Shown piece by piece: positions 16,654 through 32,596 of a stretch of DNA of 40,000 nucleotides. Below the pieces are notes generated by a model. The model was not told the DNA's origin, searched no databases, and worked only from the letters and a program-made list of their open reading frames with translations. Within the stretch, counting starts at the first letter, position 1. Each line of letters starts with the position of its first letter. This stretch comes from Marinobacterium mangrovicola (GTDB lineage Bacteria > Pseudomonadota > Gammaproteobacteria > Pseudomonadales > Balneatricaceae). The position numbers were made by a program, and so were the translations under genes. Location: NCBI RefSeq assembly GCF_004339595.1, contig NZ_SMFU01000007.1:578658-618657 (forward strand), read 5' to 3'.

Positions 16654-16668
16654 GCACAAGGAGACATC

Positions 16669-17375: not shown

Positions 17376-17378
17376 CAC

Positions 17379-17450
17379 GTGTAACAAGGCGCTGTTGTCG
17401 GACTGTTTTTCCGCTGCGCTCCAAAACAGCCGCAAAGCGTGGCGTTAGCA
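17379..17450 (+). repeat. attC 1
   Basis: GTGTAAC...GTTAGCA. The arms are partly complementary (GACTGTTTTT / AAAACAGCC). Confidence 0.75.
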
Positions 17451-17457
17451 CAAAAGA

Positions 17458-17980
17458 ATGAATCAGATCGAAGCAACTAAGATTGTGGTTGAGAAAGTCA
17501 TGGCTCATAAGCCAGGATTCTCTCTAATGCTTGATTCCACGGAGGAATTTGGAAAGTGTTTTGCTTTCTACTGCCAGAATGACTCTTATGTCGACATCCG
17601 GAGATGTTTCTGATATGAGCGTAGGTCAAGGTCCTATAATTGTGTGTAAAACCACAGGTGAATGTTTTGAAACTGGTTCCACATTTTCAACTCATGAATA
17701 CGTCCATGCGTTTGAGGCATGTGGTGATCCGTATGGGAGGCCCACCGCCAGAGTTCGCATTATGGGCTGGATCGAGGGAGCGAATGCGGTCAAAGCAGTT
17801 CAATGCGTAAAAGCAGCATCTAATCTAAATCTTGCACAGGCAAAATCACATATAGATACTGTATTGAGTGGTGGGAATACAGTTGTTTGTCTAGATTCCA
17901 TAGATGAAGTTGCAGGGGTAATTCAAACTTTAAGTAAGAATGGATTTGAATCAAGACAACTTTGGAGCAACCAGTGCTAA
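17458..17980 (+). pseudogene. Cassette 2: YrhB/Imm35-like protein with an L7/L12-C-like tail, interrupted by a frameshift
   Basis: The ATG at 17458 opens MNQIEATKIVVEKV...FGKCFAFYCQNDSYV and then hits TGA at 17611. The homology continues in the next frame (track ORF 17531-17980) as SGDVSDMSVGQGPIIVCKTTGECFETGS..EYV. The pieces are collinear with E. coli YrhB as I recall it. The frame switch is at about 17588-17597. Confidence 0.6.
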
Positions 17981-18089
17981 CAAAGGGGTGCATGGGAAGC
18001 CATTATGTTGCGCAATTTTTTGCATTTGCTTCGCAAATTATCGCAAAAAATGGCTCCACTCCATGTCTCCCATGACCCAGGCGTTAAAT
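17975..18089 (+). repeat. attC 2
   Basis: TGCTAAC...GTTAAAT. Complementary arms are GGGGTGCATGGGA / TCCCATGACCC. The gene's stop codon lies inside the R'' core. Confidence 0.75.
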
Positions 18090-18108
18090 TTCAAGGAAGC
18101 ATCGAGCA

Positions 18109-18342
18109 TTGAAAAGAAAAGACTCAGATGAGGAGCAAGAAAAAGGGCGGTTAGCCTTTTGGCGCGATCCTACGGATATTGAGTTTCTTGCAAGCGAATG
18201 GAGAAAAATTCCAGAAGATGTCCCCGAACAGGTAAAAGAAACATGGGCGCGCATTGCTTTTCGAGCATCATCAGCTTTGCATAAGGCAGGAATAAAGATA
18301 GAACCCAAGTTCCCCGAAGATCATGAGAAATACAAAATTTAA
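18109..18342 (+). CDS. Cassette 3: hypothetical acidic 77-aa protein
   Basis: The only sizeable + strand ORF in this cassette. It needs a TTG start (there is no in-frame ATG). The stop codon lies in the attC R'' core. Confidence 0.4.
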   Translation: MKRKDSDEEQEKGRLAFWRDPTDIEFLASEWRKIPEDVPEQVKETWARIAFRASSALHKAGIKIEPKFPEDHEKYKI

Positions 18343-18417
18343 CAAAGCCAAGCACGATCGCACCAGCAAGCTGGTGCTGGACCTCGCTACGCTCGGCCCG
18401 TGTTGGCGGCGTTACAT
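18337..18417 (+). repeat. attC 3
   Basis: ATTTAAC...GTTACAT. The ends are nearly identical to attC 6 (AACAAAGCCAAGCAC ... CTGGACCTCGCTACGCTCGGCCYGTGTTGGCGGCGTTA). Confidence 0.8.
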
Positions 18418-18432
18418 GCCTTAGGAGATATT

Positions 18433-18765
18433 GTGCCAAGCCAAAAGGAAGTATGTAAAAAAATCGACGCAATACCGTTTCCCTCCAAAGAGAGTGAAAA
18501 ACTAGGTATAGCTGTCGAAACTATTGGCAAATTGCCAATTAATGGCTTGCGGCTCAATCCCGAGGACGGAACATGTGGCTGGTATATTTGGTGCGGCGAA
18601 GAAATGTCCGAAGACGCAGATTTTTTCAAGCCATTGCATGTCAGCCATATCTCGGAGTACCTACCTGAAGTAGAGCAATATTTATCATTGCCACCAGGTT
18701 ATAGATTTTTAGTAGCTGGCGAGTACGAGGATGTGTGGCATGATCCACAGCTCACCAGCATGTAA
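18433..18765 (+). CDS. Cassette 4: hypothetical protein, possibly Imm33/DUF2185-like
   Basis: GTG start 4 nt after AGGAGA. The motif DGTCGWYIWCGEEMSEDADFFKPLHVSHI...LPPGYRFLVA resembles the GW..W.GEE proteins I associate with Imm33/DUF2185. The family call comes from memory only. Confidence 0.55.
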   Translation: MPSQKEVCKKIDAIPFPSKESEKLGIAVETIGKLPINGLRLNPEDGTCGWYIWCGEEMSEDADFFKPLHVSHISEYLPEVEQYLSLPPGYRFLVAGEYEDVWHDPQLTSM

Positions 18766-18819
18766 CAAGTTTAGGCAATCGGACGCAGCACAGCTGCGCC
18801 GTTGCTAAAGGCGTTAAGT
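18760..18819 (+). repeat. attC 4
   Basis: ATGTAAC...GTTAAGT. Complementary arms are GTTTAGGCAATCGGACGCAGC / GCTGCGCCGTTGCTAAAGGC. Confidence 0.8.
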
Positions 18820-18829
18820 GAATGTTCGG

Positions 18830-19234
18830 ATGTCGCGAAATTTGAAGATTGAGAAAAGAGTTGCGGCCTTCCTTGGTATTGCACTCGGTTTTTTGCTGCC
18901 AGTCACCCCAGAGCTGGGCTTAGTTATCTTGGCGGCCTTTACGGACCCGTTATCCATATTCAATTGGAGCCCATGGTTCTACCCTCTAGGTTTAGTGAGC
19001 GTGGCTGGTATGCTCTCGCTTGCGATCATGAGCCCCAAGTTTAATGAAGCAACAGCATTTTTTATTTGGGCTGGCCAAGCTGTCTTCTGCGGGGGTTGGA
19101 TAGTTGGAAAGGTCTTTGTCCTTGGTCAATCATGGCTCTTTTCTGCGTGGTATTTATTATGTAGCGCAGCTTCAATATATGTAGCTTTCAAGATTCAGTA
19201 CGGCCGCAGAGAAAGTCGTGAGGCAACCACTTAA
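18830..19234 (+). CDS. Cassette 5: hypothetical four-helix membrane protein
   Basis: About 134 aa and strongly hydrophobic (AAFLGIALGFLLPV, LGLVSVAGMLSLAIM, FFIWAGQAVFCGGWIVG, SAWYLLCSAASIYVAF). The start could be ATG at 18830 or GTG at 18818. Confidence 0.6.
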   Translation: MSRNLKIEKRVAAFLGIALGFLLPVTPELGLVILAAFTDPLSIFNWSPWFYPLGLVSVAGMLSLAIMSPKFNEATAFFIWAGQAVFCGGWIVGKVFVLGQSWLFSAWYLLCSAASIYVAFKIQYGRRESREATT

Positions 19235-19313
19235 CAAGTTGTTGTAGTTTGTTCCGGCCTAAGGCCTCCACTGGACGCCCCTCTCGGGGCGCCGCTAAAC
19301 AAAAGCGTTATGA
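19229..19313 (+). repeat. attC 5
   Basis: ACTTAAC...GTTATGA. Internal hairpins are GGCC-TAA-GGCC and GCGCCCC-TCTC-GGGGCGC. The same subfamily as attC 9 and attC 10. Confidence 0.75.
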
Positions 19314-19669
19314 ATCCCTCAGATTCGAGAGAGAAAATGTATCCGGATGATGTGAATGGCGATGTGTTCAGAAGATTGGAGGAAGATAATTTCGATTTCT
19401 CTATCGAGCATCCAGTCGATTTCTATGCTATCTATGCCACCGAAGAAGAAGCTGACCTCGTTGCAAGGCAATACGCAACCGATTGGAAGAACGGACAAAA
19501 ATTTAAAAATATAGAAACAAGGCCGAGTGATGATGGTGGTATGGAGTTAGAGTTAGTCCCAATTATGATGGTTACATTTGACAATGTCGTCGCCTTTGAA
19601 AATAAACTGGCCGAGCGTACATCAAAGGTGAACGGATATTTGGATGGCTGGGGCGTTTTAAATGGCTAA
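19310..19669 (+). CDS. Cassette 6: RraB-family protein (regulator of ribonuclease activity B-like)
   Basis: 119 aa. It matches the RraB pattern: ...NGDVFRRLEEDNFDFSIEHPVDFYAIYATEEEADLVA... and a C-terminal YLDGWG (compare RraB YDGWG). The ATG lies inside the attC 5 R' core. Confidence 0.7.
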   Translation: MNPSDSREKMYPDDVNGDVFRRLEEDNFDFSIEHPVDFYAIYATEEEADLVARQYATDWKNGQKFKNIETRPSDDGGMELELVPIMMVTFDNVVAFENKLAERTSKVNGYLDGWGVLNG

Positions 19670-19671
19670 AT

Positions 19672-19759
19672 TCATAACAAAGCCAAGCACATTCTTGCAA
19701 TGCAAAAAGCGCATTGCACTGGACCTCGCTACGCTCGGCCTGTGTTGGCGGCGTTATGT
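19672..19759 (+). repeat. attC 6
   Basis: TCATAAC...GTTATGT. The ends are nearly identical to attC 3, with a different central loop. Confidence 0.8.
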
Positions 19760-19826
19760 TACCGAGTTACCCACGAAGAGTAGACACCTTCTATAGTTAG
19801 GTTTACGCCTGACGGGGAGGTGTAAG

Positions 19827-20135
19827 ATGGCCAGGAAAAAGTATCAGCACTATACCGAGGAGTTCCGACGCGAAGCGGTAAAGCGCGCGGGTCAACCTGG
19901 GAATACAGCAGCCTCGGTTGCGAAAGAATTGGGGATTCATCCGGGTCAGATCTATAACTGGAAGCGCCAGTTCAACCGCTTGTCGGAGAAGCAATTCAAC
20001 AGCCTGAATGGTGTCGACTACTCCAAGTCTGAAAGCGAAGAAGTTCGCCAGTTAAAGCGTGAGCGGGATGCGCTGAAGAAGGAGCTCGAGTTTCTAAAAA
20101 AAGCTGCTGCGTACTTTGCGAGCCAGCACGAGTAA
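19827..20135 (+). CDS. IS3-family transposase OrfA (HTH)
   Basis: MARKKYQHYTEEFRREAVKRAGQPGNTAASVAKELGIHPGQIYNWKRQF followed by a leucine-zipper-like tail, as is typical of IS3 OrfA. Confidence 0.9.
   Translation: MARKKYQHYTEEFRREAVKRAGQPGNTAASVAKELGIHPGQIYNWKRQFNRLSEKQFNSLNGVDYSKSESEEVRQLKRERDALKKELEFLKKAAAYFASQHE
20096..20103 (+). promoter_or_regulatory. Programmed -1 ribosomal frameshift site (A AAA AAA G)
   Basis: Seven A residues then G, in the orfA frame as cta-aaa-aaa-gct. The -1 frame is open from here into orfB (..KKSCCVLCEPARVKYALIQEYRGQFSIRLMCRVLKVSASGYYRW). Confidence 0.75.
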
Positions 20136-20182
20136 AGTACGCTCTGATACAGGAGTATCGAGGACAGTTTTCGATACGTCTG

Positions 20183-20989
20183 ATGTGTCGAGTGTTAAAG
20201 GTATCGGCATCAGGATATTACCGCTGGTTCAACCGGGATATCAGTTCTCGTGAGCTCAAGCGGCAGATCATGGAAGAGCAGGTCATGGATACCTTCGCCA
20301 CTTACAAAGCCCGCTATGGGGCACCGAGAATCGCCAAGGAGCTCAATGCTCTAGGCATCCCTTGTTCGGTCAATTACGTGGCTGAGATCCTCCAACGTCA
20401 CGGTGCCAGGGCTCGTAACGGCAAGGCCTTCAAGTATTCGCCGAACACCGAAGCGATGACCGGCGTGGCCGACAACCTTCTCAAACGTCATTTCAACGCG
20501 GATGGTCCAAACCAAAAGTGGACCACCGATATCACCTATATCTGGGTCAAGGATCGCTGGTTGTACCTGGCCACGGTGATGGATCTGTATTCGCGCAGCA
20601 TCGTCGGTTGGGCGCTTGATACCAGCATGACCGAACAGTTGATCACTGATGCGCTGCAAATGGCATTTAAACGTCGTGATATCGAGCCTGGTTTAATAAT
20701 CCATTCGGATCGTGGCGTCCAGTATCGTTCGAACCGCTATCAGGCCTTGATGGAGCGTCACGGCTGCCAACCCAGCATGAGTCGAAAAGGGAACTGTTGG
20801 GACAATGCAGTGATGGAGTCGTTTTTCAGTCGGCTGAAAGTGGAGCTGATCTATGCTGAACAATATCGAACAGTAGACGAAGCTAAATCAGGGATATTCG
20901 AGTACATCGAAGTATTTTATAACCGCATACGTAGACACTCAGCTTTGGACTATGTCAGCCCAGCAGAGTATGAGCGCAAATGCGCATAA
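20183..20989 (+). CDS. IS3-family transposase OrfB (DDE integrase domain; expressed as an OrfAB fusion)
   Basis: It has an rve-type DDE domain (WTTDITYI, IIHSDRGVQYRS, NCWDNAVMESFFSRLK) in the -1 frame relative to orfA. Confidence 0.9.
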   Translation: MCRVLKVSASGYYRWFNRDISSRELKRQIMEEQVMDTFATYKARYGAPRIAKELNALGIPCSVNYVAEILQRHGARARNGKAFKYSPNTEAMTGVADNLLKRHFNADGPNQKWTTDITYIWVKDRWLYLATVMDLYSRSIVGWALDTSMTEQLITDALQMAFKRRDIEPGLIIHSDRGVQYRSNRYQALMERHGCQPSMSRKGNCWDNAVMESFFSRLKVELIYAEQYRTVDEAKSGIFEYIEVFYNRIRRHSALDYVSPAEYERKCA

Positions 20990-21038
20990 TCTAGTGTCTA
21001 CTTTTTGTGGGTAGGACCAGGAGAAGTGAGGCTAGTCA

Positions 21039-21791
21039 ATGGATAGTAAATCAATAGATTCCCTTTTTAGAATTGTAAAACAAATAAATGATAGAGAGCG
21101 AGCGAATAGAAAAAACAAATCTAAGACTCCAAATAATAGACAGGTAAACAGACTTTTTATTGAGCTCGTAATTTTCCCCTTTTGCTTGGCAATCACAATT
21201 GCGCTAGCTAGGAAACTCTTTGAACTAGGTGACTGGCTTATTAATCCAGCATTAGCAATGCTTGCGCTCTCTTATATCGGGATTGTCCTACATCCGATCA
21301 TTTCTATAATTATCAACCGTAAAGCTTTTGTTCCGGGGATATTGAACCCGTTTTATTTACTTGTTGATAACGCCAAGTCATGTTCTGAAGTGGATGCAAA
21401 GCTTGTTCGCTATTTAGAGTCAAAACCTATAGAACACCTCAAGTTTTTATTGTTGGAAATCAATTCAGAAAAATCTGCATTTCAAAAGCGAATATCATTA
21501 ACCATAGGCGCAATTGAGAAAATAGGACTTCTTCCTGGATTTCTTGCAATGGCTGTAACATTATCAAAGCTAGGTAGTGGGCAACCTGAATGGGTGTATG
21601 CACTAGCTTATGCAACCCCAGCGCTTCACGTATTTGGTGTAGCTATGCACTATCTGAGATCTAGGCTTGAGAGAATGTCAAGCTTGCTAGAGTATGTAAT
21701 TGAGACTAAAGAAAGCTCCCTAACAAATCAATCAACCACCCGCCTAGCGGCGCCGGACAGCCTACGCGTTGCTTCGGTTGCCGGTTATTGA
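21039..21791 (+). CDS. Cassette 7: hypothetical membrane protein (250 aa)
   Basis: Basic N-terminus and several TM helices (LFIELVIFPFCLAITIALA, ALAMLALSYIGIVLHPIISIII, IGLLPGFLAMAVTL, ALAYATPALHVFGVAM). The last roughly 24 codons are encoded by the attC itself. Confidence 0.6.
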   Translation: MDSKSIDSLFRIVKQINDRERANRKNKSKTPNNRQVNRLFIELVIFPFCLAITIALARKLFELGDWLINPALAMLALSYIGIVLHPIISIIINRKAFVPGILNPFYLLVDNAKSCSEVDAKLVRYLESKPIEHLKFLLLEINSEKSAFQKRISLTIGAIEKIGLLPGFLAMAVTLSKLGSGQPEWVYALAYATPALHVFGVAMHYLRSRLERMSSLLEYVIETKESSLTNQSTTRLAAPDSLRVASVAGY

Positions 21792-21802
21792 AGCGTTAAG
21801 TT
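21719..21802 (+). repeat. attC 7
   Basis: CCCTAAC...GTTAAGT. The arms are partly complementary (AAATCAATCAACC / GGTTATTGAAGC). Confidence 0.65.
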
Positions 21803-21815
21803 AAAGGATGACCTT

Positions 21816-22088
21816 ATGAGCAAGGAAGATAAACCAATTCAGGTTGTAATTCTTGGGACGATATCATCTCTCGCTCTTATCTGTGTAGCTACATATATTG
21901 CAATTGCAGGCTTTAATATAGCCTCAACTGTAATTTTAGTTTCAGCTCTTAGTGGACTAGCTGTTCCAGCTGTCGTTTATGCAGATGGTGCTATTGAGTG
22001 TGTAACCGGCGTATTCGAAATGTTTATAGAAGGTCTGGTTGCAATATTTGAAGGAATTGTAGAGATAGTAGGTTCAATATTTGGATGA
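21816..22088 (+). CDS. Cassette 8: small hydrophobic protein (90 aa)
   Basis: The ATG follows AAGGATG. It has two TM-like helices and a hydrophobic/acidic tail (FEMFIEGLVAIFEGIVEIVGSIFG). Confidence 0.55.
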   Translation: MSKEDKPIQVVILGTISSLALICVATYIAIAGFNIASTVILVSALSGLAVPAVVYADGAIECVTGVFEMFIEGLVAIFEGIVEIVGSIFG

Positions 22089-22113
22089 TTTAATAATTAT
22101 ATGTATGAAACAA

Positions 22114-22198
22114 TTCATAAAAAGTTGCTAAAGTTTACTCCGGGACTTGGTCCTCCGTAGGACCGATGCCGCTTAGGCCCTTGAGCAAAATATTATGC
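22114..22198 (+). repeat. attC 8 (degenerate cores)
   Basis: TTCATAA...ATTATGC. The arms AAGTTGCTAAAG / CTTGAGCAAAAT are complementary. The same subfamily as attC 15 (TTGCTMAAGTTTACTCC). R' starts with A instead of G. Confidence 0.6.
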
Positions 22199-22211
22199 TA
22201 TTAGGTGAACT

Positions 22212-22691
22212 ATGTCAGCGCATTATAATCTATTGTTATCGCTTCCGTTGAATATATCTTCAGCTGTTGAACATTCCTCTGTCCTGGAGTTCGTCCTCAA
22301 TAAAAATAGTTCTCAGCCAGCGAATTTTCCTAATCATCCGTTCTTTGAAAAATTTAACCCAATATATCGTTTTCATAATTCTTATAAGGGGATCGTTTCA
22401 GGCGCATGGAAATCAGAGGCTTGGCTGGAAAAGGCGCCAAACGGTAATGTTTGTAACGCTGGCGTCAATCTTTGCTTACCCGGAAATAAGCTAGAGGGAG
22501 TTTGGCAAGATACCCTTCCTCTTATTCATTGGTTGGCTTCAATGTCATCGGCGCAAGGAGCTGTCGGTATTGTCGTTGCGGAAGATCTTAGCGAGGATGA
22601 ACCAATGGTTTTATTTGTTCGCCGCTCAAAGCTCTTTATTTCTACATCGAAGCATGAAGAACTTTATAATTTTGACGATGCTCTATCTTAA
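22212..22691 (+). CDS. Cassette 9: hypothetical protein (159 aa)
   Basis: The ATG follows AGGTGA. It is the single long + strand ORF filling the cassette. I do not recognise the family. Confidence 0.6.
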   Translation: MSAHYNLLLSLPLNISSAVEHSSVLEFVLNKNSSQPANFPNHPFFEKFNPIYRFHNSYKGIVSGAWKSEAWLEKAPNGNVCNAGVNLCLPGNKLEGVWQDTLPLIHWLASMSSAQGAVGIVVAEDLSEDEPMVLFVRRSKLFISTSKHEELYNFDDALS

Positions 22692-22701
22692 CCATGATAA
22701 G

Positions 22702-22773
22702 GCCTAACAAATACACAAAGTTCGCCCACTTCGTGGACTGGGGCCTCCAGGCCCCTTGCGTGGTGCGCTAGGA
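22702..22773 (+). repeat. attC 9 (degenerate R')
   Basis: GCCTAAC...GCTAGGA, with a central perfect hairpin GGGGCC-TCCA-GGCCCC. The R' core is GCT instead of GTT. Confidence 0.6.
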
Positions 22774-22781
22774 AGTCTCGA

Positions 22782-23207
22782 ATGAAGCCCACATTCCGGC
22801 ATGCGAAAGATAAGAATTTTGTTGAGCAACTGACTCTTCGAAACATGAAGCCGTACTACAAAGAACTCGGAATTCGCTGGGACCATGAGTTATTCGAGGC
22901 GAACTGGAAGGAATTCGAGAACTACGAGATAGCTATCGATAAGTGTGCGATAGGAGCCTTGCGATTGAGTCATGATAGTTGCGCTTATTAACTTCGCGAC
23001 CTTCAAATCGACCCGGATTGGCAAGATAAGGGAGTGGGGTCGCAGGCAATCAATTTTGCTATTGCTGTCGCCCAGAAAGAAGGCTTTCAATTGCTTCGAC
23101 TTCGTGTTTTTTGTGCAAACCCCGCAGTCGCTCTCTATAGGCGCTTAGGGTTCCGGATTTGCAAAACTGAAGTCGGGGTTCACTCTATGGAGCGGGAGCT
23201 GTCTTAA
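22782..23207 (+). pseudogene. Cassette 10: small GNAT-family N-acetyltransferase interrupted by an in-frame TAA (22989-22991)
   Basis: The track ORF ends ...IGALRLSHDSCAY*. The same frame continues without a start codon as LRDLQIDPDWQDKGVGSQAINFAIAVAQKEGFQLLRLRVFCANPAVALYRRLGFRICK. This is the GNAT acetyl-CoA-binding core (Q/RxxGxG/A ... A..LY...GF). Confidence 0.75.
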
Positions 23208-23289
23208 CAAGTGTATCAAATACGTTCCGGCCCAAAGGGCCTCCCACCGGACGGCCCTTAAGGGTCGCCGTTTATCCAATGCATTAGGG
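23202..23289 (+). repeat. attC 10 (degenerate R')
   Basis: TCTTAAC...ATTAGGG, with an internal hairpin GGCCC-AAA-GGGCC. It is closely related to attC 5. R' starts with A instead of G. Confidence 0.6.
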
Positions 23290-23302
23290 GAAGGAAGGTT
23301 CC

Positions 23303-23770
23303 GTGCAGAATGACTACGAAATAGCTCCAGGAAAAATACTCAAGGTGTTTTCAGCGGAAGAGACATCAGAGATTGAAAAGTCTTGGATGAACATATTCTG
23401 CAAAAATAAACAGGGATCTAATACAAAGGCATACAAGTGGCATATTTTCAGTGGTGGTGGGTATCCATCTGTTGATGGAGAAGCCGCAAAAGAAGAATAT
23501 AAAATCCAATCGGCGGCAAAGTTCGTGGTGTTACCGAACGATGGTGAAAACGCCGTTTTGACGGATTGTTTGCCCCGAGCCTGTTGTTTGAGTGATTACT
23601 ATGTATTTCCTCTCAATATGGCGTGGGTAATGGCATTTACACACGAAGATGGGTGGCTTGGTCCATATTTTGCGAAACATCAAAACTATAATGCCTTAAA
23701 TAAAGATAATTTTATGCAAATAAAAAAAGATCAACAAAAGTCTGAGGCAAAGAAGAAAGGGTGGCTTTAA
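23303..23770 (+). CDS. Cassette 11: hypothetical protein (155 aa), possibly DUF4275-like
   Basis: GTG start after GGAAGGAAGG. The motifs KWHIFSGGGYPS and YYVFPLNMAWVMAFTHEDGWLGPYF recall DUF4275-type proteins. The family call is from memory and is weak. Confidence 0.55.
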   Translation: MQNDYEIAPGKILKVFSAEETSEIEKSWMNIFCKNKQGSNTKAYKWHIFSGGGYPSVDGEAAKEEYKIQSAAKFVVLPNDGENAVLTDCLPRACCLSDYYVFPLNMAWVMAFTHEDGWLGPYFAKHQNYNALNKDNFMQIKKDQQKSEAKKKGWL

Positions 23771-23773
23771 TAT

Positions 23774-23904
23774 TGTTTAATTCAGAGCCAAGCAAGGTGC
23801 TGCAGGAGAATCGTAGTACGCTACGAAAATTTTATGGTATCGCTACGCTCTTTTTGCCATAGAACTTACTCCACTACATTGCTCTACTGACCACGACGTT
23901 AAAA
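23774..23904 (+). repeat. attC 11 (long, partly decayed)
   Basis: TGTTTAA(T)...GTTAAAA. It shares AGCCAAGCA and TCGCTACGCTC blocks with attC 3 and attC 6, but arm complementarity is weak. Confidence 0.45.
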
Positions 23905-23921
23905 GTCTTAGGTACTGAGAA

Positions 23922-24338
23922 ATGATCGGAATTGAATTTGAAGAACCAAAGCAAGAAGTTTGTGAATGTTGTGGAAATACCACAACACGGTTGACTAGGT
24001 TTGTGTATCGAGATGGGGATGCATTTGCCGTCTACTATGTGCTGTTTACAAACGGCCATGAAGATAAGTTTGCATACTCACTGATAGGTCTGGGTGATTG
24101 GGGGGAAGGGGCTGAGCCAGAAATGCGCACAGCTTTCGCAGTTAACATCTGGGATGACAATGATAATTGGGCAGTGACCGTCACGGATAAAGCAGAATCG
24201 CCCTGGAGTCACGTTGAGTTCATGGGCAAGATCCTAGATCGTGAAGCAGCCTTAGATCACCCTTGGATCAAATATGTATATCAGATCACCGATCACATAG
24301 TTGCGGAGGACAAGCCAGTAATGGAGTTCTTCGCGTGA
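23922..24338 (+). CDS. Cassette 12: hypothetical protein (138 aa) with an N-terminal CECCG motif
   Basis: The single long + strand ORF of the cassette. I do not recognise the family. Confidence 0.6.
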   Translation: MIGIEFEEPKQEVCECCGNTTTRLTRFVYRDGDAFAVYYVLFTNGHEDKFAYSLIGLGDWGEGAEPEMRTAFAVNIWDDNDNWAVTVTDKAESPWSHVEFMGKILDREAALDHPWIKYVYQITDHIVAEDKPVMEFFA

Positions 24339-24344
24339 TCCAAC

Positions 24345-24408
24345 TTGTAACAAGTCAAAGCAGCAAGGGCCTGCGGTTGGGACAGACTAAAGCACCGAGG
24401 CATTACAC
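24345..24408 (+). repeat. attC 12-like junction (degenerate)
   Basis: TTGTAAC...ATTACAC. It has a TAAC-AAG start like the other attCs, but the arms are poorly complementary and R' starts with A. Confidence 0.35.
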
Positions 24409-24423
24409 ATTGCAGGAGCAGTT

Positions 24424-24810
24424 GTGATAGTTATCTATGGAATCAAAGAACACCTTAATCCGATCAAGGCTCAGCTCTCTGAGGTCATTCACGGATGTAT
24501 GCAGTCTGTACTTGGTATGCCTGAAGACAAGCGGGCTCACCGTTTTATCCCTATGGAATCTGAGGATTTTTATTACCCCGTTGGCAGGACGCCCGCCTAC
24601 ACTGTCATCGAGATCAATATGATGCAGGGTAGAGCTCCCGAGACCCAAAAAGCTCTGATCAAGGAGCTATTCAACAAGATTGAGTCCGAGGTTGGCATCT
24701 CACCCGTGGATGTTGAAGTCACGATCAAGGAACAACCACCTCACTGTTGGGGCTTTCGAGGCATTACCGGAGATGAGGCGCGTGACCTCAAGTATTCGGT
24801 CAATGTGTAA
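24424..24810 (+). CDS. Cassette 13: tautomerase-superfamily protein (128-aa long form)
   Basis: GTG start 5 nt after AGGAG. Sequence MIVIYGIKEHLNPIKAQLSEVIHGCMQSVLGMPEDKRAHRFIPMESEDFYYP...YTVIEINMMQGRAPETQKALIKELF...ISPVDVEVTIKEQPPHCWGFRG matches the tandem beta-alpha-beta tautomerase family pattern. Confidence 0.7.
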   Translation: MIVIYGIKEHLNPIKAQLSEVIHGCMQSVLGMPEDKRAHRFIPMESEDFYYPVGRTPAYTVIEINMMQGRAPETQKALIKELFNKIESEVGISPVDVEVTIKEQPPHCWGFRGITGDEARDLKYSVNV

Positions 24811-24879
24811 CAATGTGGTCAACGGGCTGGAAACTGTGCTGAGCTCTGTGGGTGGCACCCATTACTGCTGGCGTTATAC
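24805..24879 (+). repeat. attC 13
   Basis: GTGTAAC (containing the stop codon)...GTTATAC. Arm pairing is less obvious than in the other sites. Confidence 0.5.
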
Positions 24880-24902
24880 CGTTAATGGAAAGGAAGCTTT
24901 AG

Positions 24903-25520
24903 ATGATTTCTATAGAGTTTTTACTCACCTCGCTAGTGGTGGTTCTAATTCCGGGAACAGGGGTTATATATACCGTCGCAACAGGGATCTTCGTAGGTAA
25001 ACGTGCGAGCATATTTGCTGCATTCGGATGCACCCTCGGTATAGTCCCTGCACTTTTAGCCAGTGCTTTTGGTCTTGCCGCTATCTTTCATGCCAGTGCG
25101 CTCGCATTTCAGGTGGTAAAATATACTGGTGCTTTATACTTGATTTATCTTGCATGGCAAATGTGGCGGTTTTCTTCTCCACTCTGTTTGAAAGATAATA
25201 AAGCAGGAGGGAGATACACTGACATTGTTGTCAAAGGATGTTTGATCAATATCCTAAACCCTAAACTTTCTATATTCTTTTTGGCTTTCCTGCCACAGTT
25301 TATATCTAGCAAAACCGATAGCGCTCTAGTTGGTATGATGGTCCTTGGGCTTGTTTTTATGGTTATGACCTTTGCTGTGTTTATTGTGTACGGTGTTCTT
25401 TCAGGAATTTTTAGCCATTTTATTGTTAAGTCAAAAATAGCCAGCAGTGTCATGCATAGAATTTTCGCTACAAGTTTTGCTGCGCTCGGACTTAAGTTGG
25501 CTTTTAGTGATCGGGTATAA
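24903..25520 (+). CDS. Cassette 14: LysE/RhtB-family amino-acid exporter
   Basis: 205 aa with six TM helices. It has the N-terminal LIPGTGVIYTV motif and the LNPKLSIFFLAFLPQF motif typical of LysE/RhtB translocators. Confidence 0.85.
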   Translation: MISIEFLLTSLVVVLIPGTGVIYTVATGIFVGKRASIFAAFGCTLGIVPALLASAFGLAAIFHASALAFQVVKYTGALYLIYLAWQMWRFSSPLCLKDNKAGGRYTDIVVKGCLINILNPKLSIFFLAFLPQFISSKTDSALVGMMVLGLVFMVMTFAVFIVYGVLSGIFSHFIVKSKIASSVMHRIFATSFAALGLKLAFSDRV

Positions 25521-25598
25521 CAGGATCAGGCGTAGCGACAGCTTTTTCGTTGCGGCCACGCCTCCACTACAACGCTACGCCTGTTGGCAGCGTTATAA
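25515..25598 (+). repeat. attC 14
   Basis: GTATAAC...GTTATAA. The arms are strongly complementary (CAGGCGTAGCG / CGCTACGCCTG). Confidence 0.8.
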
Positions 25599-25609
25599 GG
25601 CTTAGGTGT

Positions 25610-25876
25610 ATGGAAACTAAAAAGGCAAATATGATACTAGGGGTTGTAGTCTCTGTTCCGATAGCAGTATTTATATTGATTTATATCGTCAATCTAAGTG
25701 ATTCTCGATATACATGGGATGACATGGATCTAAACGGTGATGGTATGGTTACTTTTACTGAAGCAGAGTATGTAGGATCATCTGGTGTTAGAGAAATCGT
25801 TGTAGATGGAAAGAAGTGCTTCGAATATTTCGCATACAAAGATGGTTTGCCAATTAAAACAGTATGCGAAGAATGA
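25610..25876 (+). CDS. Cassette 15: small membrane-anchored EF-hand protein
   Basis: 88 aa with an N-terminal TM (ILGVVVSVPIAVFILIYIV) and a canonical 12-residue EF-hand loop (DLNGDGMVTFTE). Confidence 0.65.
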   Translation: METKKANMILGVVVSVPIAVFILIYIVNLSDSRYTWDDMDLNGDGMVTFTEAEYVGSSGVREIVVDGKKCFEYFAYKDGLPIKTVCEE

Positions 25877-25880
25877 TCCT

Positions 25881-25971
25881 TATAATAAATTGCTCAAGTT
25901 TACTCCAGGCCTTTGGCCCTCCTTGAGACCTACGCAGCTTCGCTGCTCAGGCCCCTTAGCAAAGCGTTATA
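25881..25971 (+). repeat. attC 15
   Basis: TATAATA...GTTATAT. Complementary arms are AAATTGCTCAAG / CTTAGCAAAGC. The same subfamily as attC 8. Confidence 0.65.
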
Positions 25972-25975
25972 TACT

Positions 25976-26449
25976 ATGAGATATTTACTGATACTTCTCG
26001 CGTTGATTTCATCCCAAGCTAATGCAGGTGTTGATCTAGTACGGGTCGATAAGTCCGAGAGGAAAATGTATCTGTTGTCTGGCGGGGAAATAGTAAAGGA
26101 GTACCATGTTGCACTTGGCGCTAATCCTAAGGGGCCCAAGCAACAAGAGGGTGATGAGCGGACGCCGGAGGGTGACTACACCTTAGATTACAAGAAGGAA
26201 GATTCATCATTCTATAGAGCAATGCATATAAGCTACCCAAATCAAGAAGATATGGCGAATGCTGAGGAATTAGATGTTCCTCCAGGTGGGTTTATCATGG
26301 TCCATGGTCAGCGTAACTGGCTAGGATGGCTTTCTCCAGTTTCGCAGCGCTTCAATTGGACAAATGGGTGTATTGCACTGACGAACGATGAAATGGATGA
26401 GTTCATGGATCTGGTTAATGTCGGTACAAAAATTGAAATTAAGTGGTAA
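25976..26449 (+). CDS. Cassette 16, gene a: exported L,D-transpeptidase (YkuD domain, YafK-like)
   Basis: Signal peptide MRYLLILLALISSQANA. YkuD catalytic region MVHG...WTNGCIALTNDEMDEF (His ... Cys). The RTPEGDY motif is also present. Confidence 0.85.
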   Translation: MRYLLILLALISSQANAGVDLVRVDKSERKMYLLSGGEIVKEYHVALGANPKGPKQQEGDERTPEGDYTLDYKKEDSSFYRAMHISYPNQEDMANAEELDVPPGGFIMVHGQRNWLGWLSPVSQRFNWTNGCIALTNDEMDEFMDLVNVGTKIEIKW

Positions 26450-26505
26450 TCCATATAAAAATCGATGAAAATTATTCAGCTACTCTGACAGGGACGTCAA
26501 AAGCT

Positions 26506-26901
26506 ATGCAAGAAAAGTTTGTTTACGTATTCTCGGGGGAGTTTGAAGATATTGACGCAGCCTGCCTCTACTCTCAGCCTCAATGGGAGCCAGAGCCAGA
26601 TGAATCAGTTTCTGATGAAGAGTACGCAGCTTGGGAAGATCGGAATCCATCCCATCAACTACGAAAGAATATCGACTCATATTTGGATGAAGATTTCATT
26701 GAAACTGTCGATTTAGATTTTCAATACCTTTCCAGCATAGGAGTTGCGGCCTCCGATATAGCTCATATCAAAGAGAATATTGTTGGGGCGAACGTACTTG
26801 TGTTGGTTTATGAGCAGGCTTTAGGTGGCTTTTCTTTAAAAGAAAAACCCGTTTCCAATTCGTCGTTAACTTATTGTGGCCAGTTCAACTTCAAACTTTA
26901 A
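26506..26901 (+). CDS. Cassette 16, gene b: acidic cytoplasmic protein, Imm22-like
   Basis: No attC separates it from gene a. VYVFSGEFEDID...SYLDEDFIETVD...ANVLVLVYE resembles the Imm22 immunity-family pattern as I recall it. The start is uncertain (ATG at 26506, or GTG at 26443 overlapping the upstream stop). Confidence 0.5.
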   Translation: MQEKFVYVFSGEFEDIDAACLYSQPQWEPEPDESVSDEEYAAWEDRNPSHQLRKNIDSYLDEDFIETVDLDFQYLSSIGVAASDIAHIKENIVGANVLVLVYEQALGGFSLKEKPVSNSSLTYCGQFNFKL

Positions 26902-26986
26902 CGCATAATAATCAATTGTAGTCACCCGCAAGCAGGCTGGGACCTCTACTGCTATGTAGCTCCAACCCCTTAATTGAGCGTTAATT
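26896..26986 (+). repeat. attC 16 (last recognisable attC)
   Basis: CTTTAAC...GTTAATT. Complementary arms are GCATAATAATCAATTG / CTTAATTGAGC. Confidence 0.7.
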
Positions 26987-27509
26987 TCAAACGAGTATCG
27001 ATCAATATATGAGCGATTTGGGCGATCTTAGTTTTAGAAACTCGGATCAGAGTCCTATTTCCTCTACTCCATTACGATGGATCCTTGGACTTAGCTGCTG
27101 AACTAATGGGTTCTAAAGCTGCGCGGGCGTATCAACCTGATGGGGTCGCTAAGAAGATCGCCACTGAATCTGACTGGCTTACTAAGCCAGTGCAACTCCG
27201 CCGTAAAACTGAGCCAGTCGCGGCTCGCTGCGGCCAGCGAGCTCATTCCCATCACTCTGTCATCTGTTGCCCCCTGGCGATCTATAATCTGGGAGCGTGA
27301 TGGAAATCTTGCTCCCGAGAACAGGCGATCTATACGGGCGCCGTTACACGGCTACCTTGCTAGCCTCCGCTGAGCTCGATTGAGCTATAGAACCCTCAAC
27401 GCAAGGTTATAAGGACAGGATTATCGAAACTCAGCTGATGCCAAACTGCGGTGAATTGCATTCGGGCTAGCGGATAACCACAAGGAAAGTGTCTGAGTAG
27501 GGGCCTGGG

Positions 27510-29045
27510 GTGAATAGCAAAGCAAACCCAATATTTGACAAGGTCTGCGTGATTTTCGTCAGCGTGCTTGTGGGCCTGGCAACCTATTACACCAGCTACA
27601 CCCTGTTAAAAGGGGACTTCCAGTTGCTGCTTCAACACCAGGCTAGCGCGAGTCTGAATCAGATAGAAGTGGTCGCCGACGATGTATTGTCGACACTCGA
27701 TACGCTCAATGCGCGCAAAGCCGACAGCAACCAGGATTGCGATGCCGATACCCTGCTTGAGATGCGACAGGCGATGTTTGTGTCTGCCAATATCAAGGGC
27801 GTCAGTTTTGTAAAAGATGGCTATTTGATCTGCAGCGCCGCTTTAGGACGGCTGGAGCAAGCCGTACAGATTGAAGAGCCGGATTTTACTACCGAAAGTG
27901 GCGCTGCTGTCTGGATCGATGTGCCGATCCGGCTGACTGATCAAGAGCTTCAGGCGATGGTTATCCAGTCCGGTAGTTTCAGCGGGGTTATCCATCGTGA
28001 TTTTCTGGAGCACCTGGTTGGTCTTAATACAGCCTGGCGCCTTGATGTAGCGGAGGGGTTCACCAGTCGTCTGGAAGACGGCCTCGTTGCCGCAGGGCCT
28101 GCGCGCACACCGAGTAAAGCATTCAAAGTACACGACTGCATAGAGACCCTGCCGTTCTGTATCACAATCTCCGCGACTAACCTGTTTTTCCACCAGCAGT
28201 ATTACCAGGCCCTGGTTGGCTGGGTCGCCGTTTCTTTTTTATTGGCACTGTTCAGTGCGTTGGGCGTTTCCAGCTTTATCCGTCGTTACCGTTCCATAGA
28301 GGCGCGGGTAATACGCGGGCTTTCGGCTGGTGCCTTTCGTTGCCTTTATCAACCTATCGTTGAGCTTGCAAGCGGCAAGATTATCGGCTGTGAAGCTCTC
28401 GCGCGTTTTGGAGACGCGAGGGGAGATATTGCCCCCGACCTGTTCATTCCGGTGATTCATTCCAGAAAAAAAACCTGGCCTTTTACGCAGTTGATCATCA
28501 ACCAGATGCGGGATGACCTGGAGTCAATCTCTGCGCTGCCGAAACCGTTTAAGATCAACATCAACTTCTTTGCCCAGGATATCGAGAATGCCCACGTACT
28601 GGAGCTGCTATCCAGCGGTGAGCTGCAACGGGAGGGCATTCAGTATGTGCTTGAGGTGACTGAGAATGAGCGCCTTTCCACGCTGGAGAGCTCAGAGGTA
28701 CTGGTAACCATGGCTGATCATGGTTACCAGATCGCTGTCGATGACTTCGGTACAGGGTATTCCAACCTGAGTCAGATCAGGGATTTTCAATGTAATACCC
28801 TGAAGATTGATCGCAGCTTTATCAGCGCAATGGGTGGTGATTCGGTGCGTTCTACGTTAATCCCGCATATTGTCGATATCGCCGCGAAAATCGGTGCCGA
28901 AGTGGTAGCAGAGGGGATCGAAAACAGCAGGCAGCACCAGGCGCTGGTCGATGTGGGCGTGCATTATGGTCAGGGCTACCTGTTCGGGAAGCCAATGAGT
29001 TTTGAGGAGCTGGTATCGCTTATCGAGGCGCAGAACGAAAGTTGA
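27510..29045 (+). CDS. CSS-motif-domain / EAL-domain cyclic-di-GMP phosphodiesterase (PdeC-like architecture)
   Basis: TM1, a periplasmic-type domain with two Cys (NQDCD ... GYLICSAALG), TM2, then an EAL domain. The EAL domain has YQPIV, GCEALARF, EVTENE, AVDDFGTGYS, KIDRSF, VAEGIEN and GQGYLF. The start is GTG. Confidence 0.85.
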   Translation: MNSKANPIFDKVCVIFVSVLVGLATYYTSYTLLKGDFQLLLQHQASASLNQIEVVADDVLSTLDTLNARKADSNQDCDADTLLEMRQAMFVSANIKGVSFVKDGYLICSAALGRLEQAVQIEEPDFTTESGAAVWIDVPIRLTDQELQAMVIQSGSFSGVIHRDFLEHLVGLNTAWRLDVAEGFTSRLEDGLVAAGPARTPSKAFKVHDCIETLPFCITISATNLFFHQQYYQALVGWVAVSFLLALFSALGVSSFIRRYRSIEARVIRGLSAGAFRCLYQPIVELASGKIIGCEALARFGDARGDIAPDLFIPVIHSRKKTWPFTQLIINQMRDDLESISALPKPFKININFFAQDIENAHVLELLSSGELQREGIQYVLEVTENERLSTLESSEVLVTMADHGYQIAVDDFGTGYSNLSQIRDFQCNTLKIDRSFISAMGGDSVRSTLIPHIVDIAAKIGAEVVAEGIENSRQHQALVDVGVHYGQGYLFGKPMSFEELVSLIEAQNES

Positions 29046-29085
29046 GGTGCCGATAGGGGCCCGCTCTCGCTGTAGGGCCTTTTAT

Positions 29086-29175
29086 GAGAATCGGGCTCCA
29101 CACTCGCTGAGCTGCTTGCTTCAATAGATGGGTGTCAATCACCGTTGTATGCATATCGCCAAGGCTCATCTGCCG
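29086..29175 (-). pseudogene. Relic of an integron-integrase C-terminus
   Basis: The minus-strand translation QMSLGDMHTTVIDTHLLKQAAQRVWSPIL aligns with the intact IntI tail [31 protein letters not shown], with a 2-aa gap and the catalytic Tyr position reading Asp. The nucleotides are also alignable. It is bounded upstream by stop codons. Confidence 0.6.
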
Positions 29176-29181
29176 TCAGGA

Positions 29182-30120
29182 CTACAGGGAGATGGAGCAA
29201 GCAGATAGCGTGGCTTCTACCGTCGTGAGGCGCTGTTGCAGAGGCTCGGTCGCGCTGTTCAAAAAGCTCCGCACTCTGGGTGAAACCAGCCGGTTGTGCG
29301 GCATCACGAATTGAACCGGCAATGGCGCCGGGCCTAAGTCGGGGAACAGGGGGACCAGGGTGCCCCGTTCAAAATCCCGTTGCGCTTGATACGACAATAC
29401 CCGGATTATTCCAAGACCATCGCGGCAGGCCTGCAACAGTGTATCGATCTGATTACAGGTGAATACCGGATTAACTGGCACACTGAGATCGCGGCCATGT
29501 TCGTTAAATTGCCACTGGTTACCAGCGGCCGCAAAGCCAAGCGTTGGTAGCTGGCTTAACTGATCGGGCTGTTCAATCGGCCCATATTTCAGCTGCAGGG
29601 ATTCAAGCAGCGTGGGGCTCGCGCACAGAACCCACTTCACGGCCCCGACAGGCTTGGCAACCAGTGATGAGTCGGCCAACCGTCCTATGCGCAAAGCCAG
29701 ATCAAAGCCTTCCTCAATCAGATCGACGGTACGATCGAGCAAGGTCAGCTCGGCACTCATGGAAGGGTGTTGTTGCAGCCATTGGGTCAGCACCGGGGCA
29801 ATATGCAAGCGACCGAACATGATCGGTGCGGTGATCGCTAACTTGCCTGCCGGGTTGGCCCGCCGGCTGTCGAGCTGGAATTCGGCCGCGTCGATGTCTG
29901 CCAGAATCTGCCTGCAGTGTTGCAGGTAGTCACGTCCCTCATCGGTCAGCGCCAGCCTGCGGGTACTGCGATTTAGCAAGCGCACACCGAGCTGCTTTTC
30001 CAGTTCGGCCAGGCTTCGCACCACCGCAGCGGGGGAGCGAGATAGCTGCTCTGCTGCTGCACTCATGCTGCCGTGATCCACAATCGCCACAAAGGTTGTC
30101 ATGGCCTTGAGCTTATCCAT
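29182..30120 (-). CDS. LysR-family transcriptional regulator
   Basis: N-terminal wHTH (MTTFVAIVDHGSMSAAAEQLSRSPAAVVRSLAELEKQLGVRLLNR). It is divergent from the VOC and GST genes. Confidence 0.85.
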   Translation of the reverse strand: MDKLKAMTTFVAIVDHGSMSAAAEQLSRSPAAVVRSLAELEKQLGVRLLNRSTRRLALTDEGRDYLQHCRQILADIDAAEFQLDSRRANPAGKLAITAPIMFGRLHIAPVLTQWLQQHPSMSAELTLLDRTVDLIEEGFDLALRIGRLADSSLVAKPVGAVKWVLCASPTLLESLQLKYGPIEQPDQLSQLPTLGFAAAGNQWQFNEHGRDLSVPVNPVFTCNQIDTLLQACRDGLGIIRVLSYQAQRDFERGTLVPLFPDLGPAPLPVQFVMPHNRLVSPRVRSFLNSATEPLQQRLTTVEATLSACSISL

Positions 30121-30246
30121 CGCCGTCTGCCCACCGTAAAAATGTATTTGTGCAAAAAACTCAATAAACGTTACAGCTCCGCGACATTTATTGCATTGTC
30201 CGAAAGGCGTTTACTGGGGGCGTCTTCTCGTACTTTGGAGCCCGTT

Positions 30247-30663
30247 GTGAACCCACAAGCTATTCGTGCCTTCGACCATGTCGGAATTCGTGTCAGCGAC
30301 CGTCAGACTGCGGTGGCGTTTTACCAGCAGTTGGGCTTTGAAGAGGTGCGCTGCTTTGGCGCCTATGAAGCCAATGAAATGGAATCGCCGGACGGCGTGC
30401 GCATTAATCTTATTTTCAATGCGAGCAAGGCGCGGTGCGGGCGTAATGCGTTGCTCGACGAGCCGGTCAAATTGCCCGGCGTTACTCACGCCGCGTTTGT
30501 AGTGGATGACCTCCACGCCATGAAAGATTGGCTTGATCAGCAGGGCATCGCCATTACCGAAGGCATTCATCCAATTGGCCCGCGACGCATCACTCTGTTT
30601 ATCCGCGACCCTGACCGTAACGTGCTGGAATTCAATCAGCTGTTGGCTGTGCCTGAGTCGTGA
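30247..30663 (+). CDS. VOC (glyoxalase/bleomycin-resistance/dioxygenase) family protein
   Basis: FDHVGIRVSDRQTAVAFYQQLGF ... GVTHAAFVVDDL ... FIRDPDRNVLEF are paired beta-alpha-beta-beta-beta modules. The start is chosen at GTG 6 nt after GGAG; the track ORF from 30073 overlaps the LysR start. Confidence 0.75.
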   Translation: MNPQAIRAFDHVGIRVSDRQTAVAFYQQLGFEEVRCFGAYEANEMESPDGVRINLIFNASKARCGRNALLDEPVKLPGVTHAAFVVDDLHAMKDWLDQQGIAITEGIHPIGPRRITLFIRDPDRNVLEFNQLLAVPES

Positions 30664-30731
30664 CTGTTAATTTCCCGAGCCGGTGCGATTTAACCACCGT
30701 TAGATAACAATAAAACCCCAAAGGTATTGAA

Positions 30732-31325
30732 ATGAAACTCTACGATCTTGAACTCTCCGGTAACTGCTACAAGGTGCGCCTGCTGGCGGCGCTGATTGGT
30801 GTGGAGCTCGACATCAAGCCGGTCGACTTCCTTGACGGTGCTCACAAACGCTCACCGGTGATCGACCTCAACCCGTTTGGCGAATTGCCGGTGCTAGTGG
30901 ATGGTGAGGTGGTATTGCGCGATTCGCAAGCCATTCTGGTGTACCTGGCGCGCCAATACGGTGGACACCAGTGGTGGCCGGACGGCGCTGCCCAGCAAGG
31001 CGAGGTGATGCAGTGGTTATCGACCGCCGCCAACGAAATATTCAACGGCCCCAATGCCGCGCGACTGGTCGACAAATTCGGCTCTGCCCTGGACAAGGAG
31101 CGCGCTCTGGCCGTCAGTGCTCACATTTTGCCGTTGCTTGAGCAGCATCTGCAGCGCAATGAATGGTTGGCTCTGGATCGTCCGACGATTGCCGATCTGG
31201 CGGTATTCCCTTATGTGGCGCTGGGTTGGGAAGGCGGCTTAACGCTGGAGAACTATCCGGCCATTCAGGACTGGATTGGGCGTATCAAGCAGCTGCCGGG
31301 CTACATTGATATGCCGGGAATTTAG
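30732..31325 (+). CDS. Glutathione S-transferase family protein
   Basis: MKLYDLELSGNCYKVRLLAALIGVELD...NPFGELPVLVDGEVVLRDSQAILVYLA is the thioredoxin-like GST N-terminal domain. A helical C-terminal domain follows. Confidence 0.85.
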   Translation: MKLYDLELSGNCYKVRLLAALIGVELDIKPVDFLDGAHKRSPVIDLNPFGELPVLVDGEVVLRDSQAILVYLARQYGGHQWWPDGAAQQGEVMQWLSTAANEIFNGPNAARLVDKFGSALDKERALAVSAHILPLLEQHLQRNEWLALDRPTIADLAVFPYVALGWEGGLTLENYPAIQDWIGRIKQLPGYIDMPGI

Positions 31326-31679
31326 TAAAGGCTGGCCTGTTGCTATATCGGCTGTGCAATGCAGCCGGTATAGCCAATAACAACTCTGGTTATTTCAATC
31401 GCTTACTGCTTTTTCGTCCCACGCTCGCTACGATGGTTTTACAAATAGATAGGGTAAAGCCCTCAAATGAACCAAGGATGACCCCTGGTTAACCCTGAAC
31501 CTGGCGCAGCACCTAGCCCATCAAAACTCGGTATAAGGCCGGCTTCGCACCCATCAGGGCATTGCCAATCTAGCTCTGTAGATCGAGGTTGCCATCAGCT
31601 TTCCCGCTGGCACGACAGATTGGGTGGTTATTGGCGTAGAAGTGACAGGCAATCAGGGTGTTAGCAGGAAAAGGAACCC

Positions 31680-32216
31680 ATGAATCAAAGCCTCGCAGAT
31701 GAACTCATCAGGATGATGAGCAAAGACCAGCAGGTGTTACAGCAGCTTTTCGACTCCGGCGAGTTGCCCTCCGATGCTTATCATCCCCGGATAAAAGCCC
31801 TGCACCAGGCCAATACCTCCCGACTAAAAGAGATGATCAGCGCGCACGGCTGGCCCGGTATTTCGTTAGTGGGCGAAGAGGGCGCCAAAGCGGCATGGCT
31901 GGTGGTTCAGCATTCTGTTTCAGACCCTGAATTTATGGCGGAGTGTATCGGCCTGCTGGAAGCGGCTGTTGGGCGGTCCGATGTCGCGGGCTGGCAACTG
32001 GCGTTCCTCCAGGACCGGGTATGTACGCTAGCTGGCAAGCCGCAGTATTACGGCACCCAGTTTGATATTGATGAGAACGGGTGGCCGACGCCGTTTCCTA
32101 TCGATGATGCCGCCGGCGTTAATGAGCGCCGTGCACGGCTTGGGCTGAACTCACTTGAGGAGCGCCTGGAAGAGATGACAGAACGGGAGCGGCAACGCCG
32201 GGCCAATGCTGGATAA
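31680..32216 (+). CDS. Hypothetical protein (DUF6624-like)
   Basis: 178 aa. The motifs HGWPGISLVGEEGAKAAWLVVQH and QDRV...GKPQYYGTQF recall DUF6624 proteins. The call is from memory. Confidence 0.5.
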   Translation: MNQSLADELIRMMSKDQQVLQQLFDSGELPSDAYHPRIKALHQANTSRLKEMISAHGWPGISLVGEEGAKAAWLVVQHSVSDPEFMAECIGLLEAAVGRSDVAGWQLAFLQDRVCTLAGKPQYYGTQFDIDENGWPTPFPIDDAAGVNERRARLGLNSLEERLEEMTERERQRRANAG

Positions 32217-32590: not shown

Positions 32591-32596
32591 CTCGGA

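Follow-up and report, generated by a model that had tools for sequence, protein, structure and literature searches.

The window analyzed here, a 40,000-nucleotide stretch of the Marinobacterium mangrovicola genome (G000:C1:578658-618657), carries an intact integron and, beyond the far end of its cassette array, what is very probably the decayed 3′ end of an additional integron integrase gene. The relic lies on the minus strand between a CSS-motif/EAL gene and a LysR gene. We think it likely that an ancestor carried two integron platforms in tandem at this locus, that one of them was lost, and that the relic is its fossil.

The features of the window are collected in Table 1. At the left, decarboxylase and saccharopine dehydrogenase (sacDH) genes on the plus strand are followed by a terminator and then by the resident intI on the minus strand, and the cassette array of the resident integron is low in GC content (40-48%). 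We refer to the sacDH-adjacent integrase as S-type and to the integrase that is always found tail to tail with the CSS-EAL gene as E-type. To the right of the DUF6624 gene, a genome-specific block of ABM, MarR, MATE, and FUSC genes (32234-35865) precedes core genes shared with Marinobacterium sp. YM272 (G006), which, like M. lutimaris DSM 22012 (G003), is a close relative.

Table 1. Features of the window around the resident integron and the integrase relic
Feature	Position	Strand	Description and basis
Resident intact integron integrase gene (S-type, adjoins sacDH)	15461..16429	minus	322 aa; TIGR02249, 438 bits; tree
attI (core ending in AACAGGCTG, then TTAC, near 16650) and resident cassette array	16600..26986	plus	Last recognizable attC at 26896-26986
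Upstream region of the EAL gene	27171..27509	plus	Left edge of the EAL/E-type module; blastn, junction alignments
CSS-motif/EAL c-di-GMP phosphodiesterase gene	27510..29045	plus	Pfam PF12792 and PF00563; orthologues adjoin a full intI in YM272 (G006) and L041
Remaining intI-EAL intergenic DNA	29046..29082		Putatively includes the degenerate end of the lost intI with its stop; alignments, terminator scan
intI 3′-end relic	29083..29182	minus	Last ~29-33 codons; catalytic Tyr codon replaced by Asp; nhmmer, BLASTP, alignment with the YM272 and L041 intI 3′ ends
LysR (minus), glyoxalase and GST (plus) genes	29182..31325		Regulator-plus-detoxification module, probably occupying the site from which attI, the array, and the 5′ part of intI were lost; Pfam
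GTTAGCA core, then DUF6624 gene	31655..32216	plus	Putative conserved distal end of the lost array; DUF6624 closes the YM272 array too

The integrase-like segment between EAL and LysR

The minus strand is open from 29020 to 29175, and the first 29 codons of the open stretch are IntI-like. The initial annotation had read an IntI C-terminal relic from the letters at 29086-29175, and the translation was confirmed. Pairwise BLASTP aligned 29090-29175 with the final 29 codons of the resident IntI at 15/29 identities and 20/29 positives (E = 4e-7); the alignment was ungapped, and the two-residue gap drawn earlier was unneeded. A GAC (Asp) codon stands where IntI has the TAC codon of the catalytic Tyr, as had been noticed. 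The similarity takes in the C-terminal motif that follows the catalytic Tyr (THVL..G..GV.SPL), and the LKQ.AQ.V.SP residues, first described as typical of IntI, proved to be common to the IntI type of this genus and absent from the other IntI types that occur in it. Of 18,950 NCBIfam models, only TIGR02249 (integron integrase; E = 0.032, profile positions 289-312 of 315) matched the relic peptide, and the score was far under the 265-bit cut-off, as it should be for a fragment.

A search of the region by tblastn or blastn with IntI had been suggested at the outset. With a single IntI protein as the query, whole-genome tblastn gave a marginal value for the relic (E = 0.16), which was nevertheless the top match outside genuine recombinase genes. 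A DNA profile was also built, for which intI genes were taken from five other genomes and the resident intI and that of M. lutimaris were left out. In an nhmmer search of the whole 5-Mb genome, this profile matched minus-strand positions 29090-29175 with E = 2.4e-7 and 28.3 bits, the envelope spanning 29083-29182, and only the resident intI and xerC/xerD-like genes scored higher. The match covered profile positions 868-953 of 962. At the nucleotide level, the relic aligned without gaps over 87 nt to the 3′ ends of six Marinobacterium intI genes with 61-71% identity; the value for the resident intI was 67%, similar to those for the other tails. The initial annotation had noted that the nucleotide sequences align yet are clearly diverged. 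We conclude that homology to intI is demonstrated and significant and that, as far as sequence can tell, the segment is a derived fragment of a gene of the IntI (TIGR02249) family.

The relic is oriented like the resident intI and is in frame with LysR, and a stop codon lies directly upstream of it, TCC TGA separating it from the LysR stop, in agreement with the first description. Neither the complete R-H-R-Y catalytic set nor an open reading frame of ~320 codons is present in the relic, which retains only about the last 29 codons, and tblastn and nhmmer found no further intI-like piece in the window or nearby that could hold the IntI-specific additional domain upstream of patch III. The relic perhaps reaches ~29202, into the last six codons of LysR; in a weak alignment (16/27 nt), these codons (29182-29202, minus strand) match the intI codons that lie just upstream of the relic. 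Moreover, the LysR protein encoded here has 312 aa, compared with 292-298 aa in syntenic modules elsewhere, and is thus 14-20 aa longer. From the alignment and the length, the LysR tail may now be read from relic DNA.

The M. lutimaris genome has the same layout, relic included, and its relic is 17/29 identical to IntI. The two relics are 87% identical in nucleotide sequence, a level equal to that of the adjacent EAL genes (86.5%), and 8 of the 11 nucleotide differences change an amino acid. The presence of the relic in both species indicates that it is older than their split, and its EAL-like identity together with the excess of nonsynonymous changes indicates that it has evolved without coding selection.

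Folding of the relic region gave no attC-like or other structure (z = +1.1, no better than shuffles), and no RYYYAAC/GTTRRRY attC pair (R''-L''...L'-R') was found in 29046-29181. There was likewise no Rfam match in 26900-29400, no attC or other fold in 31366-31672, and no attI or foldable attC within 29.0-31.7 kb, where the DNA upstream of the relic is occupied by LysR, glyoxalase, and GST genes. A terminator scan indicated a weak terminator-like hairpin for the EAL gene at 29063-29078 on the plus strand, adjoining the relic.

These results bear on whether the likeness to intI could be due to chance or whether the segment could be a functional small open reading frame, RNA, or attC unrelated to intI. 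Such a reading could draw on the marginal single-protein tblastn value and on the ATG-started frame of 49 codons that is present at the relic, but the start codon is not conserved, the substitutions are mostly nonsynonymous, structure, Rfam family, and attC fold are all absent, the profile match is significant, and the positional homologue described below is a full intI. The reading is scarcely credible and effectively refuted. We conclude that the relic, so far as its pattern of change reveals, is neutrally decaying, inert DNA without detectable function.

The EAL/intI junction in relatives

In YM272 (NZ_CP194171, about 3.055-3.079 Mb), the order of features is sacDH, terminator, EAL upstream region, EAL gene, ~105-140 bp, and a full intI on the opposite strand. 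The EAL gene is 82% identical in nucleotide sequence to that of the window, and its upstream region is homologous to 27242-27314. The intI gene is full length (325 aa, no stops) and is followed by attI, a 23-kb array, and DUF6624, so that the positional homologue of the relic belongs to a complete integron, and beyond DUF6624 lie the same core genes as at 36281-39733 of the window. A contig from Logan, L041, carries sacDH, the EAL gene, a gene for a 226-aa secreted protein, a duplicate of the EAL 3′ end, a full intI, and attI and ends just past intI. In both cases, a full intI convergent with the orthologous EAL gene stands at the position of the relic. Moreover, the intI 3′ end and EAL-proximal intergenic DNA of YM272 and L041 align with the relic and with the DNA from it as far as the EAL stop, although ~100 nt of the YM272 intI-EAL intergenic DNA is missing from M. 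mangrovicola. The relic is therefore equivalent in position to the 3′ end of intI. The comparison with relatives that had been proposed for this locus thus yielded a full-length integrase in both sequences and, in YM272, a cassette array.

The resemblance between the window and the YM272 integron extends to the flanks (sacDH at one end, DUF6624 and core genes at the other end), to the EAL neighbor, and to the intI 3′ end. The two differ in that the integrase of YM272 is complete, with attI and its 23-kb array, and in that YM272 has no sacDH-adjacent platform and no LysR-glyoxalase-GST genes. Both ends of the YM272 integron are nonetheless collinear with the window, the EAL gene and the intI 3′ end on the left and a GTTRRRY core and DUF6624 on the right. 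On the DUF6624 side, homology among M. mangrovicola, the close strain L039, and YM272 begins right after the core (GTTAGCA, GTTAACC, and GTTAACC, respectively), and the DNA upstream of the core is mutually unrelated among the three. A homology start at a GTTRRRY core is the signature of a cassette boundary. The DUF6624 gene behaves as a conserved terminal cassette or array boundary, and no foldable attC precedes it here.

Between the collinear ends, ~24 kb of YM272 DNA (intI 5′ part, attI, and array) corresponds to 2.5 kb with the LysR-glyoxalase-GST genes in the window. The trio was not found in YM272, M. lacunae, Marinobacterium sp. D7, or G005, which are congeners with a genus-type intI, nor was it found in L039. 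The same synteny is present in two genomes of other families, which indicates an ordinary chromosomal module rather than a cassette. The resident and YM272 arrays had no cassettes in common, only an IS fragment, and are uninformative on common descent.

On the left side, the region between the last attC and the EAL gene is composite. The stretch at 26987-27170 was found in L039 only and is unexplained. Conservation of the EAL upstream region began at 27171 in M. lutimaris and at 27218-27263 in YM272, L040, and L041, and in YM272 and L041 the region directly follows the sacDH terminator. An apparent homology to M. lutimaris left of 27171 in a global alignment was lost in sensitive blastn. The initial annotation had asked whether the EAL gene and the spacer at 27 kb belong to the history of the integron. 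The comparison answers that the EAL gene is the constant 3′ neighbor of the lost integrase and that 27171-27509 is its upstream region. On this view, what follows the array, the EAL gene with its structured upstream spacer, would be the flank of a lost integron rather than cassettes, and in annotation the array boundary should be set at 26986 (plus the short stretch at 26987-27170) and not at LysR.

One alternative is that the EAL gene was imported from a YM272-like donor together with the last ~100 bp of the donor intI, such that a complete second integron never existed here. Consistent with import, the EAL module adjoins sacDH on its left in YM272 and L041 and other genes in L040, and in the window it follows a cassette array; moreover, the EAL gene diverges faster than housekeeping genes (86.5% versus 96-97% identity between M. 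mangrovicola and M. lutimaris), which fits recombination. The locus, however, is that of the YM272 integron with both of its ends collinear, and an imported fragment would need to have landed by chance between the same landmarks. We consider import of this kind unlikely and favor the loss of a platform that once stood at this position.

Several further features of the junction were observed. In L041, the 143-bp duplicate of the EAL 3′ end (L041:5388-5534; 81% nucleotide identity) lies between the 226-aa gene and intI, which suggests another fossil at the EAL/intI junction and replacement of the EAL allele. In YM272, a second, near-identical attI-like copy (a hairpin plus a core ending in AACAGACTGTTA) is present ~1.5 kb into the array (L011, about 10601-10641 and 12137-12200).

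L039 (Logan SRR28393042) has 97% identity to the window in EAL and the same cassettes, and the relic is absent from it. Instead, 146 bp ending in the attC-like GCGTTAACC (L039:7995-8140) replace the last 10 nt of EAL, the relic, and the LysR-glyoxalase-GST genes, with DUF6624 directly next. The replacement had no significant match elsewhere beyond a 15-nt word. The absence of both relic and trio from L039 indicates that remodeling of the junction continues.

In M. lutimaris, the resident-type intI (L012; G003:C18:1496000-1515900; about 16640-18400) has become a pseudogene, its frame interrupted by three stops and lengthened by an insertion of 12 nt. The DNA that separates the sacDH terminator from the intI 3′ end holds an inserted toxin-antitoxin pair (HigB/HigA-like), and ~170 bp are deleted between the intI start and the attI core. 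With its intI a pseudogene and the relic also present, both platforms appear to be dead in M. lutimaris.

In M. lacunae and Marinobacterium sp. D7, sacDH directly adjoins intI and there is no EAL orthologue, which indicates that the sacDH-adjacent position is old in the genus. Two candidates for comparison were set aside: a second intI of M. lacunae (a pseudogene on contig C57), considered as a tandem case, sits at another chromosomal locus, and an EAL-like gene in G001 is a 46% paralogue found elsewhere and is uninformative.

Integrase lineages and proposed history

The resident and EAL-adjacent integrase genes were compared with the flanking decarboxylase and sacDH housekeeping genes (nucleotide identities throughout). 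Between M. mangrovicola and M. lutimaris, decarboxylase/sacDH identity was 96-97% and intI identity 94.8%, and between YM272 and L041 the values were 93-94% and 85.4%. The decarboxylase/sacDH genes of M. mangrovicola were similarly close to those of YM272 and L041 (92-94% for each), and the corresponding intI identities were 75.7% and 73.9%. For M. lacunae, the values were 82% and 73.2%, so the YM272 intI is as distant from the resident intI as is the intI of a much more distant species. By this measure, the resident and EAL-adjacent integrases appear to have diverged beyond what is expected of orthologues.

In a tree of 31 IntI proteins, the resident and M. lutimaris proteins grouped with that of M. 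lacunae (support 89/83). The YM272 and L041 proteins and two Logan proteins formed a separate clade (97/91), sister to a Shewanella-containing clade and across a 97/96 branch, with the IntIs of other genera on the resident side. The resident and EAL-adjacent integrases thus belong to different clades. An approximately unbiased (AU) test in which S-type and E-type were constrained to a single clade gave p = 0.057, and the support that the tree lends to distinct S and E lineages, whether by paralogy or xenology, is suggestive, not decisive. The relic itself could not be assigned to a lineage: phylogenetic placement relative to the resident intI, which had been proposed, fails on 87 nt that are equidistant from all lineages, with the informative sites mixed among the six genus-type tails. 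It is the position of the relic next to EAL from which we infer that it is E-type.

A single integron could also account for the relic if the order sacDH-EAL-intI-array were ancestral and were followed either by tandem duplication and deletions or by a move of EAL with the intI tail, such that the relic would be a paralogue of the resident intI. Every orientation is kept between the two layouts, the relic resembles the resident intI to the same degree as any other intI, and the AU test stops short of rejecting one clade, all of which such a history would accommodate. It would, however, predict ~85% identity between the resident and YM272 intI genes where 75.7% is found, it would have to bridge separate supported clades with the IntIs of other genera between them, and it would require at least three separate events. 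Moreover, the outgroup species already have sacDH directly beside intI. We regard a purely internal origin as very unlikely.

The finding of a full intI at the relic position in YM272 and L041 and of the resident intI in a different clade instead supports the proposal of the initial annotation, according to which the site once held an older integron, or a paralogue of intI, that was then destroyed. Under the tandem history that we favor, the ancestor of M. mangrovicola and M. lutimaris would have carried two platforms between sacDH and DUF6624, first the S-type intI-attI-array and then, distally, EAL and the E-type intI-attI-array as still intact in YM272. A deletion or replacement would then have taken away the attI and array of the E-type platform together with the first ~290 codons of its intI, and the same event would have placed the LysR-glyoxalase-GST module there. 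The survivors would be the last ~30 intI codons beside EAL and the terminal DUF6624 unit, and the YM272 and L041 lineages would carry the E-type platform only. Both the order of events and the former presence of a complete E-type integron in this lineage are what we infer from these comparisons. A genome with both platforms intact was not found among the nine species representatives and the Logan contigs examined, and, given the M. lacunae and D7 layout, with sacDH directly beside intI and no EAL orthologue, either platform may be the older one at the locus.

Relation to known integrons

Sedentary chromosomal integrons of marine Gammaproteobacteria (Vibrio, Shewanella, Xanthomonas type) occupy a fixed locus within a genus, have a one-directional array, and show frequent decay of intI in some species. 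The usual description has a single platform, inherited vertically, at each locus. The Marinobacterium integron resembles them in its fixed locus, its one-directional array, and its intI decay, as in the M. lutimaris intI with three stops. It differs in that two IntI lineages are tied to one locus in sister species and that one genome keeps a fossil. A literature search found no paper on Marinobacterium integrons.

One reading of the two lineages is that the sacDH-DUF6624 locus is a hotspot at which whole integron platforms are exchanged, with two distinct intI lineages, one related to that of M. lacunae and one next to the Shewanella type, of which sister species kept different ones. We hold this to be quite possible and advance it tentatively. 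If it is true, vertical inheritance is not the only route for sedentary chromosomal integrons, and lateral replacement can exchange a platform along with its array. The relic would serve as a dated marker that the integron locus of the genus carried two integrase lineages, and under the tandem history it would indicate that an entire platform and its array can be erased and overwritten by ordinary chromosomal genes as the neighboring platform remains active. For the study of integron evolution, the locus is a modest case in which the turnover of sedentary chromosomal platforms can be tested.

Remnants of integrase genes have been described before. In a survey of integrons (Cury et al. 2016, Nucleic Acids Res 44:4539, PMC4889954), intI pseudogenes were found near 15 of 279 CALINs, and loss of intI was discussed as one way in which CALINs arise. 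The relic is like those pseudogenes in being a recognizable IntI-specific C-terminal remnant after integrase loss. It differs in length, at ~29 codons, compared with the >50% profile coverage required in that study, a criterion that the relic probably fails. It also differs in setting, as its own array is gone and it sits at the far end of a different integron, itself intact, and not beside an orphan array. We conclude that the relic is a new, very short example of a documented kind of intI pseudogene and ordinary in kind, and that its place at the far end of an intact integron, with two IntI lineages at one chromosomal locus, is somewhat unusual.

Three sequences outside the window were also noted. 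A truncated tyrosine recombinase C terminus with an internal stop (G000:C3:314768-314935, minus strand) is of the phage integrase and not the IntI type. Two others, G000:C8:52858-52937 and G000:C1:974686-974755, are 81-83% identical to the last attC of the resident array and may be attC sites without an integrase, resembling CALINs.
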